Shown here piece by piece: positions 30,431 through 53,682 of a DNA stretch of 64,000 bases. The position numbers and the translations under genes were made by a program. The notes below the pieces were generated by a model. The model was given only the letters and a program-made list of their open reading frames with translations. It searched no databases and was not told the DNA's origin. Source of the DNA: Planctomycetota bacterium. Its GTDB lineage: Bacteria; Planctomycetota; UBA1135. The stretch lies in assembly GCA_021776795.1 (NCBI GenBank), contig JAJFFC010000008.1, positions 314,738 to 378,737 on the forward strand. Direction: 5' to 3'. Within the stretch, counting starts at the first letter, position 1. Each line of letters starts with the position of its first letter.

Positions 30431-31933
30431 CTAAGACGAGAGCCACTCTATGGCAGCCACCAATGCGTGGTCTTCTTCGCCTGAGGCGGACTGCGCGGGC
30501 ACTTCGACGTCGGGCTGGATCTTGTTGCCGTATTGCTTGCCGGTGCGGTCGGCGTAGACGCTGGTGGTCAAGAGCAGTATCGCGCCGTCGGCCAAGGGAA
30601 TGGACGAGTTGCCTGTGGAGAGTCCGGTTGTCGGTTGGCCAAAGGTGCGCACGTTGGGGCGACCAAGGAAAGCGACCAAAGTGGCTTCACCGGAACTGCC
30701 GGTCCAGCGCGAAGTCAGGATGGCGATCGGCAGGTCTTTGGCAAAGCTGACCTCGTGCGGAGGATTCACTTTGGTACCCGGGTAGTCTCCCTGCCCGGCT
30801 TCGCTGTTGCGATACCACCAGAGATCGGAACTGCCGTCGAGATAATCAAAACTGCCCACAACTTCCGCGCCAAGCAGTGGGCCTAATCCGGCAAGCATCG
30901 GCCACATGTTGCCGCCGCCATTTTGGCGCAGATCTAACACGATGCCGCGACAGCCCTGAAAATCATTCACACCCCGAGCAATCTCGGCGGCAAAGCGGAG
31001 CGGACTCTCGTCATCGAAAGAAAGGTGCCCGGGAAGCCAGAGATAACCAATATCCCCCTCTAAGCGTTCCCACTCCGGCAACAGCATCGGCGCCGGGCTG
31101 GTGGAGCCATCCTTTTCCACGACCGGATCGTAAGCGGAGATGTACGCCGGCGTCAGCAAACGACTGTGGCGATCTTGCAGTGCGCTCAGACAAAAGCGGA
31201 TGGCCGGGTAAGTATCGGCGGTGGTCTTGGCGCCGCGAGTCAAGGAGTGCAGGTCTTTGCGCATTTGCGGCCAGTCCACCTGCTCGCGCATCATGGCTTG
31301 GCTTTCGACAATCCCAAGGAAGTCGTCAAGATAGGCCGCCGCTTCTGGACTTGCCGGCGCGGAGTACCCGCTGCCGCCCAAGCTGGCGCGCAAGCCGCCA
31401 AACTGAGCAACTCCCGTTCCCAATAGGCCGACGCCAAGAACCAACTCCTCGGCCTCGCGCGGAATCGGCACCTTTAAGGTGAAGTCGCTCCACGTACCTG
31501 ACTCTGCTTGCGGCAAATCGCGACTATCGACCATGCCGAGGACTTCCTTGCCGCGATCCATGCGCACCCAAACAAAGGGTTGGCCAGTGGAGCCCTCTTG
31601 GTACTGCTCCCACTCCACCTCTAGCAACAAGGCTGCCGCACGCTGTTCGGGCAAAGGCAGGGTGGTCCAAACGGTGTGATAAACACCGGGAGCTTCGCCT
31701 TCAAAACGCAGACTCCCCGCCCGTTCACTTGCCGGATCCCGGCCCAGCGAAAGAACGTAATGCTCCGGAGTTACCCCAGTTACTTCGCCTTCGGTCCAGC
31801 GCGGGTGTAAAGACGTATCGGAGGTGTCGGCAAAAGGAAGCGACTGAATGCCCGGCTGCGCGCAGGAGGCCAGGGCACTCAGAATCAAGAGCGCCAAAAG
31901 AGACCGGTGTTTGCGCAAGGATTTACTGCACAC
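30431..31933 (-). CDS. S41 family peptidase lipoprotein
   Basis: LASC lipobox; VLDLRQNGGG, TGSSGE, FGQPTTG, IQPDV. Confidence 0.85.
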   Translation of the reverse strand: MCSKSLRKHRSLLALLILSALASCAQPGIQSLPFADTSDTSLHPRWTEGEVTGVTPEHYVLSLGRDPASERAGSLRFEGEAPGVYHTVWTTLPLPEQRAAALLLEVEWEQYQEGSTGQPFVWVRMDRGKEVLGMVDSRDLPQAESGTWSDFTLKVPIPREAEELVLGVGLLGTGVAQFGGLRASLGGSGYSAPASPEAAAYLDDFLGIVESQAMMREQVDWPQMRKDLHSLTRGAKTTADTYPAIRFCLSALQDRHSRLLTPAYISAYDPVVEKDGSTSPAPMLLPEWERLEGDIGYLWLPGHLSFDDESPLRFAAEIARGVNDFQGCRGIVLDLRQNGGGNMWPMLAGLGPLLGAEVVGSFDYLDGSSDLWWYRNSEAGQGDYPGTKVNPPHEVSFAKDLPIAILTSRWTGSSGEATLVAFLGRPNVRTFGQPTTGLSTGNSSIPLADGAILLLTTSVYADRTGKQYGNKIQPDVEVPAQSASGEEDHALVAAIEWLSS

Positions 31934-32423
31934 TCAAGCGTGGATGCTCACGATCCCAACCAATCACGACGCCTCGGATGTCTTGCATTCCAGCCTCAGC
32001 ACTAGCGCCGCGCAATTCCAGCTCCTGGCCGGTTTCCAAGCGCAAGAACTGACGCTCAGCGCCATTGCACTGGTCACAAGCATGAGTCACGACCTCACCG
32101 GAAAGGTCGAGGCGAATCTCCGTGATGACATAGGCGGCATCGAATGCGGCACGCTCCATGTCAGCAAAATCAATCGTCTGTGGCTCGCGCAGTGCGTAGT
32201 GCGCATAGCTATCGACGGTATCGAGGTAAATGGTGTCGGCACCAGCCTGGCGCCGTAAGGCTTTCTCTAATCCGAAAGCCTTATCGTTTCATATTCAGCT
32301 TTCGAACAGGAGACGCACCTTGGCAAAGGGATCTCCTGAATCCCAGGCTGTGTCGGGTGCGAGACTGCAGGACGCCGCGCCAAGCACGGCCAAACTGGCA
32401 AGCAGGGTGAAGATGCGGAACAT
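31923..32423 (-). CDS. Putative selenoprotein: HMA-like lipoprotein with two in-frame TGA codons (U43-I44-U45)
   Basis: ATG 2 nt after upstream stop; signal peptide with AASC lipobox; TGA at 32297-32295 and 32291-32289; frame continues into AFGLEKALRR and joins listed ORF 31923-32159; hairpin follows. Confidence 0.7.
32256..32283 (-). promoter_or_regulatory. SECIS-like hairpin
   Basis: Perfect 10-bp stem UAAGGCUUUC/GAAAGCCUUA with loop GGAUUAGA, 21 and 15 nt after the two UGAs. Confidence 0.6.
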
Positions 32424-32425
32424 GA

Positions 32426-33337
32426 TTAAAAGCGTAAACCGACAGACAAGGAGACTTGGTAATCGAACGGCACTTGCAGGCCACCGTAGGTTGAGGACAA
32501 GGGCACGTCAAGGCTGAAGCCGATATCCCATTGTGGCTGCGGGTGCCAAGCGAGGCCAAATTTACCCAGCCATAGCTCACTGCCGGAGCTCACCACCGGC
32601 ACGCCCATGGAAGTAGCTTGTGCTTGATCGCGGTAAAGCAAACCCAATTTGACGTTGGCGCTTGGGCCAGGATATTGCTTATGCAGGAATCGATAAGCGC
32701 CGACAAAATCCAAGGCCAAGGAATCTCCGTTTTCCCATTGTTGGGTGCCGCTGTGATTGTCCTTGTATAGGGCGATGGCATCGAAGCGCCAACGATCCAA
32801 CTCCAAGTTGGCGGACAGAGAAACAAAGGGGTCCCAGGAGCCAGAGCCGGGCTGCATGCCTGGGCTGACCAACACGCCGGCATCGCGGACGTCGGTTTCT
32901 CCGGTAGGAAGTTCAGTGCCAATCGCAGCCGCGACATGCCAGCCGGAGCGCTCCCAATAGTCATGCGCCACCAACCACTTGAATAAAATCGAGAGGTCAC
33001 CGAGCCCAGAACTTTCGGTGGTGGTGGCGCCGCGGTCGCGACTCTTCTGCACCATCGGCAGCAATGCGGTAAAGCCAAAGCGCGATGTAATGCCGTAATC
33101 AAAACCAAAGGTGGTGCGGTCTTCGCTGTAGCTTTGGTCGAGTGGGTCAAAAACCGAACTCGATCCGGCCTGCAAACCACTGCCTTCACGGTGGAGATGA
33201 CTGACGGAAATGCGCGAGCCTCCTGTAAACAGCATTTCTCCGGTGAGGGTTTCAATCCCGCCGGATTGCGCGGAAAGCGTACTGCTGCACCAGAGTGATG
33301 TAGCCAGGACGGCCAGGGGGAGACATTTGTTGCTCAT
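32426..33337 (-). CDS. Outer-membrane beta-barrel 'transporter' (Phenol_MetA_deg/SphA-like family)
   Basis: Signal peptide; SGLGDLSI, ELPTG, QPGSGSWD motifs; ends in SVGLRF. Confidence 0.75.
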   Translation of the reverse strand: MSNKCLPLAVLATSLWCSSTLSAQSGGIETLTGEMLFTGGSRISVSHLHREGSGLQAGSSSVFDPLDQSYSEDRTTFGFDYGITSRFGFTALLPMVQKSRDRGATTTESSGLGDLSILFKWLVAHDYWERSGWHVAAAIGTELPTGETDVRDAGVLVSPGMQPGSGSWDPFVSLSANLELDRWRFDAIALYKDNHSGTQQWENGDSLALDFVGAYRFLHKQYPGPSANVKLGLLYRDQAQATSMGVPVVSSGSELWLGKFGLAWHPQPQWDIGFSLDVPLSSTYGGLQVPFDYQVSLSVGLRF

Positions 33338-35330: not shown

Positions 35331-36920
35331 ATGGCCAAGGTGGATTCACGCATCCTCCTCATTGCACTCCTGTTTACCGCCTGCACCATGCCGAAGTCTG
35401 ACCATGCCAAAGCCCCGCAAACTGCGGCGGAGACTAGCCAGGGAGCGCGCACTTCTTCGGTCGAGGAAGTGCAGCATTTCTTGGCCCAACTCCCCGCTTT
35501 GCCGCAGGGAGGGCTCCTGCAAGTTGCGACCTTTGGAAAAACTCACGAAGGCCGTGACATGACTCTGGTGATTGCAGCCAACCCTCCGCTGCACACTGCC
35601 CAAGAGGTTTTGGCTTCAGGCAAGTTGCGCTTACTGGTCAATGCCAACATTCATGCCGGTGAAGTCGAAGGCAAAGAGGCGGTGCAAATGCTTTTGCGCG
35701 AGATTGCGCTTGGCCAACATGAAGAGTTGTTGCGCTACGCGGTCCTTATGTTTGTGCCGGTGTACAACGCCGATGGCAACGAGCGCTTCGACCGCGCCAA
35801 CCGCGCCACGCAAAATGGACCGATCGAGGGCGTCGGCACGCGCGCCAATGCACAAGAACTGGATCTGAATCGGGATTTCCTGAAAGTGGAGGCGCCGGAA
35901 ACTCGTGCACTGCTTGGCCTGATGAATGTCTACGATCCGCACCTGTTTATGGATTTGCATACCACGAACGGATCCTATCACGGCTATCACCTGACCTATT
36001 CGCCGTCGTTGAGCACAAATGTCGACGCAGACATCAACCGCTTTGCGCGCCAAAGCTTTCTGCCCAGCGTGCGCGAGAAAATGGAGCATGCGCATGGCTT
36101 TCGCACATTGGATTACGGCAACTTTACCGACACCGAGCCGCGGGAATGGGTGACCTATGACCATCGCCCCCGCTTTGGCACCAACTACATGGGCTTGCGT
36201 AATCGCCTGAGCGTGCTGTCGGAAGCCTATAGCTATGTGGATTTCCAGACCCGCATTGCGGCCACGCGCGCCTTTGTCTTGACGGTTTTGGAACAAGCCG
36301 TTGCGGATCGAGATCAGATTCGCACTCTACTTGCCACTGCCGATGCGAAAACTGCAGCAGGCACGTGGCAGTTTGGCCATGACAGCCTGCTTGGCGAATC
36401 CATCACTCAAGATGTGTTGGTCGGCAGTGTCCAGGAAGTGGAGTTGCCCGACGACCTCGGCGTGCGCCGGATTGCCGATGAGAGTTATGAATCGGTGGCC
36501 ATGGCCACGCGATTGGGTTTTGTGTCGCAACAGCAAAACTCGCCACCCTTGGGATGGCTACTGCGGCAACCGAGCCAAGAAATGCGCGATCTCCTCGATT
36601 GGCATGGCGTGCAATCCGAGGCGTGGAGCCAACAAGTCCAGGGCCAGCTCGAAGTCTTTGAAATCAGCGCCTGTCATCGCGAAGGCGTCCTGTTTCAGGG
36701 CCATTTTGAGCTGAAGCTAGAAGGCCAGTGGCGGTCTGCGGAAAAAGCTGCCCCCGCCGATGCCCTGTGGATTTCTGCTCATCAACCCTTAGGCCGGGTT
36801 GCAGCGCAGCTTCTCGACCCCTTGAGCGAGGACTCGGCAAGCACCTGGGATCGTCTGCAGGGCTGGGAAGATGTGCAAACAGGCAAAACCGTGCCTTTTC
36901 TGTGGAGAATTCTTGAATAG
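35331..36920 (+). CDS. M14 family zinc carboxypeptidase (probable lipoprotein)
   Basis: NIHAGEVEG (HxxE), DLNRD, DLH; FTAC lipobox; start could be GTG 35340. Confidence 0.85.
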   Translation: MAKVDSRILLIALLFTACTMPKSDHAKAPQTAAETSQGARTSSVEEVQHFLAQLPALPQGGLLQVATFGKTHEGRDMTLVIAANPPLHTAQEVLASGKLRLLVNANIHAGEVEGKEAVQMLLREIALGQHEELLRYAVLMFVPVYNADGNERFDRANRATQNGPIEGVGTRANAQELDLNRDFLKVEAPETRALLGLMNVYDPHLFMDLHTTNGSYHGYHLTYSPSLSTNVDADINRFARQSFLPSVREKMEHAHGFRTLDYGNFTDTEPREWVTYDHRPRFGTNYMGLRNRLSVLSEAYSYVDFQTRIAATRAFVLTVLEQAVADRDQIRTLLATADAKTAAGTWQFGHDSLLGESITQDVLVGSVQEVELPDDLGVRRIADESYESVAMATRLGFVSQQQNSPPLGWLLRQPSQEMRDLLDWHGVQSEAWSQQVQGQLEVFEISACHREGVLFQGHFELKLEGQWRSAEKAAPADALWISAHQPLGRVAAQLLDPLSEDSASTWDRLQGWEDVQTGKTVPFLWRILE

Positions 36921-36957
36921 AATTTCTCAACTGTCAATTCCTGACCTACGATACTGG

Positions 36958-37686
36958 ATGATGAAAGCGATTCTTCTCCCTATTCTCATGGCTGGCGCCC
37001 TCACAAGTGCCGCCACAGCACAGGAGGTCAAACCGACCCCGGTGCAAGCTCCGGCCGAAGACGCCGCGAAAGAAGTCAAGAAGCCCACGGTTTACACCGT
37101 TGGCACACAGGTCCCTACTGACCTGGTCCTGACTGATCTCGATGGCAAGACTCTGTCCATGAAAGAGCTCCGCGGTAAGACCGTGGTCGTGACCTGGTAT
37201 GCCATCCATTGCCCAGCCATCACGGCCACCGTGGAACGCCTCAAGACTATGGCCAAGGAGTTCGAAGGTGATAAGGATGTCGTCTTCATTGCCATCAACA
37301 GCGACAAAAATGAGCTGGCCGATGCCAAGCCCAAAGGTGTCGACAAGGACGGCAACCCAATCAAGCCTTATGCCACCATCCGCAACTACATGAAGGACAA
37401 GAAGATCAACTTCCGCATGTTCGTGGATCCGGGCAACAAGATTGCTGACCGCTTCCAGGCGAAGACCACCCCGCATATGTTTGTCATCGATGGCAAAGGT
37501 ATCGTGCGTTACTCCGGTGCGCTCGATAACGATATGCGCCTGAAGAAGGAAGAAAAGGACTACCGTAACTACGTTTCCGAAACGGTCGAGGCCATCAAGG
37601 CCAACCGCTTGGTCACCACGACCAACACCAAGCCTTATGGCTGAAGTGTGAAGCGCGAGCGCCGGTCTGGCGCTTCTAAGAGCTGA
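36958..37686 (+). CDS. Exported AhpC/TSA redoxin (Prx-like), probably a selenoprotein read through TGA 37642-37644
   Basis: HCP, AINS, AKTTPHMFVID, YSGALD motifs; C-terminal TKPYG-TGA-SVK where the family motif is GCS(V/I)K; hairpin follows. Confidence 0.75.
37657..37675 (+). promoter_or_regulatory. SECIS-like hairpin
   Basis: AGCGCC-GGUCU-GGCGCU; loop starts 19 nt after UGA. Confidence 0.55.
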
Positions 37687-51429: not shown

Positions 51430-53682
51430 ATGAAACATCAAACCTCGCTTTCTCTCCAAGGGATGAGCTGCGCTTCTTGCGTTGCCCATATTGAGAAGGC
51501 CTTGCACGGGATTCCTGGAGTCCTGGAGGCAAGTGTCAATCTGGCCACCGAACGCGCCGAGGTGATCACCTCAGGCGTAATCCCCTTTCCCATTTTGCAG
51601 GTTGCCATCGAAAAGGCGGGCTATCAAGCGCAAGAGATTTCTGGGGAAGACCCTCCTGGCGCGAGCAGTTCCACCGAAGATCGACGCAATCAGGAGCAAG
51701 CTACACTCAAGCGAGATCTTCTTATCGCGGCGCTCTTGACCTTACCCGTATTCCTCTTGGAAATGGGAGCCCACCTGGTTCCGGCCTTCCATCATTTTTT
51801 AAACGACAGTATCGGCCAACAAACAAACTGGTGGATACAACTTGGGCTAACCAGTGCCGTCCTGTTTGGCCCAGGCCGACGATTTTTTAAGGCTGGCGTG
51901 CCCTCCCTGCTGCGCATGGCCCCGGACATGAACTCCTTGGTGGTCCTTGGCACCAGTGCCGCCTTTGGGTTTTCGGTCGTCGCGACGGTCGCCCCATTCT
52001 GGCTACCGGAGGGCACCGTTCATGTGTACTTCGAAGCCGCGGCCGTTATTGTCACCCTAATCCTCATTGGCCGTTTTCTGGAAGGAAAAGCAAAAGGAAG
52101 AACCTCTCAAGCGATTCAGCGCTTGGTGAAGATGCAGCCCAAAACGGCAAGAGTTTTGCGTAAGGGGGATTTCGTCGAACTCCCGATTGCGGAAGTGACC
52201 CACGGAGATCACCTTCAAGTGCGCCCCGGAGAACGCATTGCCGTCGATGGCATTGTTTTGGAGGGGAGTAGTTTCGTCGACGAGTCCATGATTTCCGGAG
52301 AACCCATTCCGGTCGAAAAATCGGTGGACGCAAAATTGGTCGGTGGCACCATGAATCAAGCTGGTGCACTCACCATGGCGGCAACCGCCGTCGGGGGCGA
52401 AACGGTCCTCGCTCAAATCATCTTGATGGTCGAGCAAGCCCAGGGATCTAAGCTGCCGATTCAAGCCTTAGTCGATCGCGTGACGAGGTGGTTCGTGCCT
52501 ACTGTTGTCCTGCTCGCAGCGCTGACCTTTGGCGCTTGGATGCTATTTGGCCCCGCTCCGGCACTCACGCTTGGCTTAGTCAATGCTGTTGCGGTACTTA
52601 TCGTGGCATGCCCCTGCGCCATGGGCTTGGCGACCCCGACCTCGATCATGGTCGGCACCGGCCGAGGAGCGGAAATGGGGGTCCTTTTCCGCAAGGGGGA
52701 GGCCCTGCAAGCGCTGCAAGTAACGCGCGTCGTCGCCCTCGATAAAACGGGGACCCTGACCGAAGGTCGCCCGTCGTTGACCGACTTGCACCTCATCCAA
52801 GGGTTTTCTCGCGACCAGGTTCTGGCTTTGGTGGCGGCTGTGGAGGGCAAATCGGAACATCCAATCGCCAAGGCATTGGTGGCTGCTGCAGTCCAAGAAA
52901 ATCTGACCATCCCCCCCGCCGCAGATTTCGAATCCGTCACCGGCTACGGCGTTCGAGCCACGGTGAATGGCCAACGGATTGAGGTTGGCGCGGACCGCTG
53001 GATGGAACAACTTGGTCTCGTTCTAACGCCCTTACAACAGCAAGCACTCCTGCTAGGAAACGAAGGGAAGTCTCCCCTCTACGTTGCGGTCGATGGCAGC
53101 TTGGCGGCTATGGTCGCTGTTTCCGATCCCATCAAAGAAAGCACACCCCCAGCGATCGATGCCCTGCATGCTCTCGACCTTCCTGTCGCGATGATTACTG
53201 GCGACAATCGGCTAACCGCCCAAGCGATCGCAAACCGCCTGGGGATTGATGAGGTGGTGGCTGAAGTGCTTCCCGCTGGCAAGGTGCAAGCACTCGAAGA
53301 GTTAAAGGCTAGGTTTGGATCCCTTACTTTTATTGGCGATGGCATCAATGATGCGCCTGCCCTGGCGGCGGCGGACGTCGGCATTGCCATCGGTACGGGG
53401 ACGGATATCGCGATGGAGGCTGCCGACGTGGTCCTGATGTCGGGCAGTCTCGACAGCGTTCCACAGGCAATCGCCTTATCGAAAGCCACGATGCGCAACA
53501 TTCGCCAAAATCTCTTTTGGGCTTTTGCTTATAACGCGGCGCTCATTCCCATTGCGGCCGGCGCCCTCTATCCCGCAACTGGGATGCTGCTCTCCCCTGC
53601 ACTTGCCGCCGGTGCCATGGCCCTGTCCAGCCTCTTTGTCCTTGCGAATGCCCTTCGGCTCCGGGGACTGCCTCTTAATTGA
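51430..53682 (+). CDS. copA: Copper-translocating P1B-type ATPase
   Basis: [34 protein letters not shown] and MALSS motifs. Confidence 0.93.

Follow-up and report, generated by a model that had tools for sequence, protein, structure and literature searches.

By predicted fold, the closest described relatives of the protein treated here are the HMA metallochaperones (PF00403; CopZ, MerP, Atx1/Ccc2a), whose metal-site loop reads MxCxxC. Two selenocysteines (Sec; U in motifs) in an HMA-like domain are likewise found in NF041115 (UxxU_metal_bind), a two-Sec "putative mercuric reductase" covered in the parts of a 2026 review drawn on here (PMC13188914); in those parts, UxU is absent from the table of 119 selenoprotein families, where the HMA-like entries comprise NF041115 (UxxU) and transport proteins. 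We analyzed a 64,000-nucleotide (nt) stretch of a Planctomycetota genome (the window; contig JAJFFC010000008.1 of assembly GCA_021776795.1, positions 314,738 to 378,737), in which a gene for a 166-amino-acid (aa) lipoprotein carries two in-frame TGA codons, three bases apart, at such a site. The protein shares its predicted fold over residues 33-106 with the metallochaperones and would be exported like MerP, but it has U-x-U-x-x-K/E instead of MxCxxC, a predicted lipid anchor, and an additional beta domain. It is almost certainly a selenoprotein in which both TGAs are read as selenocysteine, and it apparently belongs to a widespread, uncatalogued family of two-Sec HMA-fold lipoproteins. An initial annotation of the window had pointed to no described family with this arrangement, in agreement with the review table and with scans of NCBIfam and Pfam, where the lipoprotein family reached no curated cutoff.

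Reading frame, conservation, and the meaning of TGA

The gene and its motif lie on the reverse strand, at these window positions:

32423-31923 (-): gene for the 166-aa lipoprotein with two in-frame TGA codons (U43-I-U45), placed by frame and homologues
32367-32423 (-): signal peptide and lipobox with Cys19, a column invariant in 46/46 aligned members; lipidation is predicted
32295-32297 (-): first TGA, U43, at the Met position of the HMA MxCxxC loop by profile alignment
32289-32291 (-): second TGA, U45, at the first Cys of the same loop by profile alignment

The frame opens with an ATG at 32423, 2 bases past the TAA of a 303-codon barrel gene (33337-32426), and runs for 166 codons to a final TAA at 31925-31923, in the same frame as a 78-aa open reading frame. 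The single frame with TGA at codons 43 and 45 and the signal peptide with lipobox, both claimed in the initial annotation, were confirmed as described. Across four public sequencing runs, examined as contigs rather than raw reads, both TGAs are spanned unchanged by one contig from the same study (X3) and one from another (X5); run X2 covers both near a contig end, and run X4 has a gap there. The unchanged contigs from two studies rule out sequencing error as the source of the TGAs.

Conservation was followed outward from the window. The single window protein matched 7 of 61 genomes, each with two TGAs. A seven-row profile, used in a search that reports stop codons of any type, matched 78 of 301 genomes of the order at 81 places, and because the best 63 of these 81 all carry exactly two TGAs, the pair is not a product of chance. 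Across the phylum, a 46-row profile (median identity of 30% in its alignment) matched 53 of 401 genomes, 25 of them with UxU. Both TGAs recur in 62/62 distinct translated members, part of which came from a pattern requiring TGA, so that the unbiased conservation figure is 63/63. Within these 62, residue 44 is I, T, S, or V, residue 46 is N (59 members) or S, residue 51 is always G, and neither C nor U occurs at residue 48; the genes end in TGA (28), TAG (24), or TAA (9), with one sequence cut.

The relatives are labeled Planctomycetota. Three members on short contigs (L056, L063, and L079; 2.6-8.7 kb) come from bins labeled Luminiphilus, Glaciecola, and Paceibacteria; they nest among Planctomycetota sequences and are probably misbinned. 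One UxU copy (L085/L104, G176:C84) lacks a signal peptide and a barrel and begins right after the TGA of an unrelated gene, as a rearrangement or misassembly might.

Interchange of Cys and Sec at residues 43 and 45, which the initial annotation had led us to expect, was not found within the clade, and Cys forms occur only in sister clades with other spacing. With the motif recoded to Cys codons, the pattern found no relative in the genome or metagenome collection (12 and 81 raw stretches); for comparison, the TGA-containing pattern yielded true relatives in 42/44 and 53/54 stretches. Three full-length database entries, on long branches inside the clade, have no Cys at the motif. Among the sister clades, TGA and Cys codons do interchange at the first HMA Cys. 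A Cys counterpart of U45 is seen there, while U43 is matched only by a Cys one residue off, in CxxCxxC relatives.

The source genome (3.26 Mb, 89% complete) encodes selA, selB, selD, and tRNA-Sec (selC), each above its cutoff, which answers the search for Sec machinery proposed at the outset; its selD itself carries a TGA. Genome-wide reassignment of TGA is ruled out, because 274 of 926 long frames terminate in TGA and the only tRNA with a TCA anticodon is tRNA-Sec. All 25 phylum genomes with UxU have selA, compared to 288/401 phylum genomes overall. In the order, selA occurs in 283/301 genomes, including 60/63 with UxU, and in 102/102 high-quality genomes, marking a strongly selenium-using lineage.

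Could the TGAs instead be true stops, separating a short lipopeptide gene from a second gene, or encode another residue, or mark a pseudogene? Database entries are mostly pieces of the gene, with 113-aa and 42-aa products, and no Cys-Cys form of the clade appeared in our scans, as such readings would have it. We regard them as very improbable: the top 63 places carry exactly two TGAs although any stop would have been reported, 50/62 members have no ATG in residues 46-67, the first HMA strand precedes the TGAs in the model, TGA is a common true stop with no second TCA tRNA to read it otherwise, and sister clades exchange TGA with Cys codons. Some observations do tell against two selenocysteines throughout. 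Four long-branch relatives nested in the clade lack the pair, three wholly (P0048, P0059, and P0080) and one (L133) retaining a single TGA; 3/63 UxU genomes, which are 62-81% complete, gave no selA match; and since selA is near universal in the order, its co-occurrence there is uninformative.

Two hairpins behind the UGAs

The initial annotation had described one 10-bp hairpin with a GG-starting loop, taken to be a selenocysteine insertion sequence (SECIS) serving both UGAs. That hairpin is present (H1), and a second (H2) sits directly behind it:

32256-32283 (-): H1, SECIS-like, 10 bp, loop starting GG, from folding and conservation
32238-32254 (-): H2, SECIS-like, 6-bp core, 5-nt loop, conserved G at 32247, from conservation and covariation

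In numbering that starts at the first UGA, nt 15-42 form H1 and nt 44-60 form H2. The stability of H1 exceeds that of dinucleotide shuffles (z = -3.8 to -5.0 in four overlapping fragments). In 46 of 47 members, each hairpin exceeded its synonymous recodings in stability, with mean energies, native versus recoded, of -16.9 versus -9.0 kcal/mol for H1 and -12.2 versus -7.8 kcal/mol for H2; in four downstream control regions, the native sequence was the more stable in 17-24 of the 47. Pairing is kept in 96.7% of cells for H2, with double changes at 5/6 pairs, and in 79.2% for H1 in one register, with double changes at 6/11 pairs, all counts being inflated by relatedness, and the RNAalifold consensus fold contains H2 only. 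The H2 loop G, a third codon position, is G in 59/62 members across Gln, Arg, and Leu codons, boxes that end in G at rates of 73%, 22%, and 43% elsewhere in these genes. As H2 lay outside the search pattern, the metagenome matches serve as a hold-out set, and there H2 pairs were kept in 202/204 cases and the loop G in 34/34 new sequences. We consider it highly likely that both hairpins are functional.

Which hairpin serves which UGA can be approached through the sister clades. Weaker profile matches are related two-domain proteins, most of them beside related barrels, with UxxU (23), CxxU (2), UxxC (1), CxxC (2), CxxCxxC (4), UxUxxU (1), and UxUUxU (1) motifs. A maximum-likelihood tree of 101 rows, built on groups chosen after a quick tree, with motif columns kept and only a midpoint root, separates 28 CxxC/UxxU-type rows from 73 others (support 99/97); the larger side holds UxU, three- and four-Sec forms, CxxCxxC, and motif-less forms. 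Measured from the first UGA base, the H1 loop begins at 24-25 nt in 21/23 UxxU proteins, and in UxU proteins at 25-26 nt in 37/62 and at 28 nt in 19, which places H1 3-6 nt earlier in the protein in UxU than in UxxU. The position of H2 is unchanged in both classes (23/23 UxxU and 59/62 UxU), so that its distance from the second UGA is 31-32 nt in UxxU, within the published range of 16-37 nt, and 40-41 nt in UxU, which exceeds that range. The Cys-only forms gave no consistent hairpin signal, in a set of only six sequences and with folding windows that differed between classes.

H1 thus moves with the first UGA while H2 stays put, and the simplest reading assigns H1 to the first UGA and H2 to the last. 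We favor, with some reserve, one SECIS per UGA; SelB would then decode the first UGA with H1 and the second with H2, and the proposal of one hairpin for two UGAs is probably wrong or incomplete. Distances complicate this assignment. The H2 loop of the window gene starts 40 nt after the second UGA, beyond the consensus of 16-37 nt given in the review parts at hand (PMC13188914). The H1 loop follows the first UGA by 21 nt and the second by 15 nt, with its G at 22 and 16 nt, inside the range for both, and because it lies only 15-16 nt from the second UGA, H1 could serve both. In the three single-Sec forms, H2 is retained and H1 is still visible at least in traces; the two hairpins may also form a composite element, or both UGAs may share H1.

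Several sister loci extend the series. One (L156, G670:C7, 1919-2443, +) has four TGAs in six codons (U-V-U-U-E-U), an adjacent related barrel, and selA in its genome. A three-Sec UxUxxU form with both hairpins (L132, G575:C182, 1-387, +) is cut short by the contig start. At least two further clades of barrel-linked UxxU lipoproteins (L089-L100, L135, and L143-L157) comprise 23 distinct sequences, and UxU and UxxU paralogues occur together in genomes G182, G325, and G589. The CxxCxxC relatives (L138-L141) share the two-domain build, three of them preceded by a longer, porin-like gene without a match to the barrel profile.

The lipoprotein, its barrel partner, and possible function

The domains and the partner gene are as follows:

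32106-32327 (-): HMA domain of CopZ/MerP type, residues ~33-106, from the predicted model (predicted local distance difference test [pLDDT] of 91.8) and structural matches
31926-32129 (-): C-terminal five-stranded beta domain, residues 99-166, with CDQC (116-119) on a loop, from the model (pLDDT of 93.5)
32426-33337 (-): outer-membrane beta-barrel gene, PF13557/COG4313-like, the constant upstream partner (Pfam, 41 bits against a cutoff of 22)

The predicted model makes an HMA fold of residues 33-106 very probable: it is ferredoxin-like, its ten best structural matches are all HMA domains, and it bears out the likeness first suggested from the sequence. A gapless profile alignment (probability of 97%) to a CPFC-type Cys-only relative, itself near a related barrel, supports the register proposed in the initial annotation, with U45 at the first Cys and K48 at the second; U43 then falls on Met, and the second Cys is lost. 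By sequence, the window protein gave no PF00403 match at E 0.1 and did not reach the gathering score, and 5/46 members matched weakly (best E, 0.0023). The downstream CDQC noted earlier is present, but in the second domain, where only 30/62 members have a CxxC.

The barrel product consists of ~280 mature residues plus a signal peptide. Its gene lies directly upstream in 46/47 loci, mostly within 50 nt, and in 46/46 metagenome loci with at least 400 nt of upstream sequence (46/53 in all). No mer or cop genes were recognized among recurring neighbors. Some 19 kb from the module, at ~51436-51567 (+), an HMA-like stretch lies in a 782-codon frame that is probably a heavy-metal P-type ATPase.

On balance, we lean toward a two-gene module in which the two-Sec HMA-fold lipoprotein binds a soft metal between its selenols, taken over from the barrel. 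The lipoprotein would be lipid-anchored on the periplasmic side of the envelope. From an ancestral MxCxxC loop, Sec may have been gained at the Met position and the second ligand lost, leaving a U-x-U pair that could coordinate Cu(I), Ag(I), Hg(II), or an organometal in near-linear geometry; the barrel would admit the soft metal or organometal, and the lipoprotein would hold or hand on what enters. Grounds for slightly favoring metal capture behind the barrel are the predicted HMA fold, descent from Cys-type ancestors, the variants rich in ligands, and a strict pairing with the barrel. Selenolates bind Cu(I) and Hg(II) tightly, a further ground for such a mechanism.

Four points sit poorly with metal capture. 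Each of the 62 members has K, E, T, A, M, or L at the second ligand position, so the standard HMA metal pair is missing; in 47 loci with flanks of 1.5-5 kb, some cut, no other neighbor except overlapping frames occurs in more than five; no His or Cys is invariant in the barrel, the best being His265 (35/44); and characterized barrel relatives take up hydrophobic organics, according to the parts of PMC4493636 drawn on. Loss of the second ligand would also suit an HMA-fold envelope redox catalyst that cycles U43/U45 between selenol and diselenide, with the optional CxxC of the second domain, in 30/62 members, as a relay. Most characterized selenoproteins are oxidoreductases in the review parts used (PMC13188914), and thioredoxin-fold Sec candidates are numerous in the genome. 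Metal chaperones nonetheless share the fold and include the nearest Cys relatives, the second CxxC is absent from half of the family, the neighborhood shows no recurring redox partner gene, and three- and four-Sec loops would suit ligand counting better than a two-electron couple; we judge redox catalysis unlikely.

The barrel invites another alternative, in which Sec forms an adduct with an organic or metalloid compound that the barrel admits (an organomercurial, an organoarsenical, or a selenium compound) and no bare metal ion is involved. The barrel belongs by Pfam to a family whose studied members pass hydrophobic molecules, in the same parts of PMC4493636, it has no invariant metal-ligand residues, and Sec-rich organometal systems have been proposed elsewhere, in the portion consulted of bioRxiv 10.1101/2022.07.06.499078. 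No lyase, reductase, methyltransferase, or transporter gene recurs nearby, however, the Pfam match is modest at 41 bits, and no solved structure matched the barrel by sequence below E 0.4 (weak match to FapF, E 0.41). Adduct formation seems slightly less likely still than redox catalysis.

Returning to metal capture, the fullest version of our proposal is tentative, somewhat short of an even chance: a widespread Planctomycetota envelope module with a selenium-only U-x-U site (no Cys-Cys form in the clade, and UxUxxU and UxUUxU relatives) and tandem SECIS hairpins in the coding region, one per UGA. If true, it offers a natural model for placing two to four selenocysteines in a stretch of six codons, and it would join a seleno-metallochaperone to an outer-membrane channel through which a soft metal or organometal is taken up. 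The family also suggests one pathway for interaction between these bacteria and copper or mercury. It makes directly testable how a single ribosome reads two UGAs three bases apart with the SECIS in coding sequence, and the natural series CxxC, CxxU, UxxU, UxUxxU, UxU, and UxUUxU, with matching hairpin shifts, supplies controls.

Other candidate selenoproteins and comparison with described families

Elsewhere in the window, an AhpC/redoxin gene (36871-37686, +) is probably another selenoprotein: its called frame ends at a TGA (37642-37644) in a PYG-U-SVK motif and runs on for 13 codons, with a small GC-rich inverted repeat, found by eye, ~20 nt downstream. In the genome (G000), a TGA at C12:66679 (+), followed 21 nt downstream by a G-loop hairpin, connects a 671-codon frame to one of 391 codons and may mark a large selenoprotein. 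Nine further candidates (C30:6924, C30:26209, C4:393248, C12:195403, C26:167981, C26:109565, C29:281236, C9:203790, and C1:33523) are mostly, we presume from their motifs, thioredoxin- or peroxiredoxin-like.

The UxU family is common, in at least 63/301 genomes of the order and 25/401 across the phylum, and is systematically misannotated. In the parts drawn on, the deep-Sep paper (PMC12013277) holds that every known selenoprotein seems to have a Cys homologue, and the main text of BSepDB (PMC13326102) mentions neither Planctomycetota nor UxU. Discovery methods filter on Cys homologues; our scans gave no such homologue at the motif for the UxU clade, while its distant sisters do have Cys at one of the two positions.

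By the membership tests of the named families the lipoprotein stands outside all of them, though it is metallochaperone-like by predicted fold. The 74-position UxxU model NF041115, which itself matches HMA domains, matched 2/46 UxU members (best E, 0.037) and not the window locus, and 14 barrel-linked UxxU sisters scanned scored no more than 34.4 bits against its cutoff of 95. NF045683 (MerT_CopZ_Se), also a metal-related selenoprotein, touches the HMA part of 7/46 members (best E, 1.2e-4) but is a 235-position MerT/CopZ fusion with a cutoff of 375, whereas the window protein is a 166-aa soluble lipoprotein. NF045648 (MbdU), metal-related as well, has 468 positions and a CU motif, unlike the UxU lipoprotein, and matched neither the source genome at E 10 nor any of the 46 members. 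The rhodanese-related variant of Olavius symbionts, the sole UxU that the literature searches brought up, reached this motif by gain of a second Sec, in the parts of PMC1976440 at hand, but it has a different fold and family and is one variant form, compared to a family-wide invariant here. H1 agrees with the bacterial SECIS consensus as far as the first UGA is concerned (G within the first two positions of the loop, a spacing of 21-22 nt, and a stable stem), whereas two abutting hairpins behind two UGAs 3 nt apart, with H2 beyond 16-37 nt, depart from it. The partner barrel passes the Pfam cutoff for the COG4313/PF13557 channels (Pput2725, SphA, and TcpY), but here it is paired with a seleno-HMA lipoprotein rather than with aromatic or lipid catabolism.
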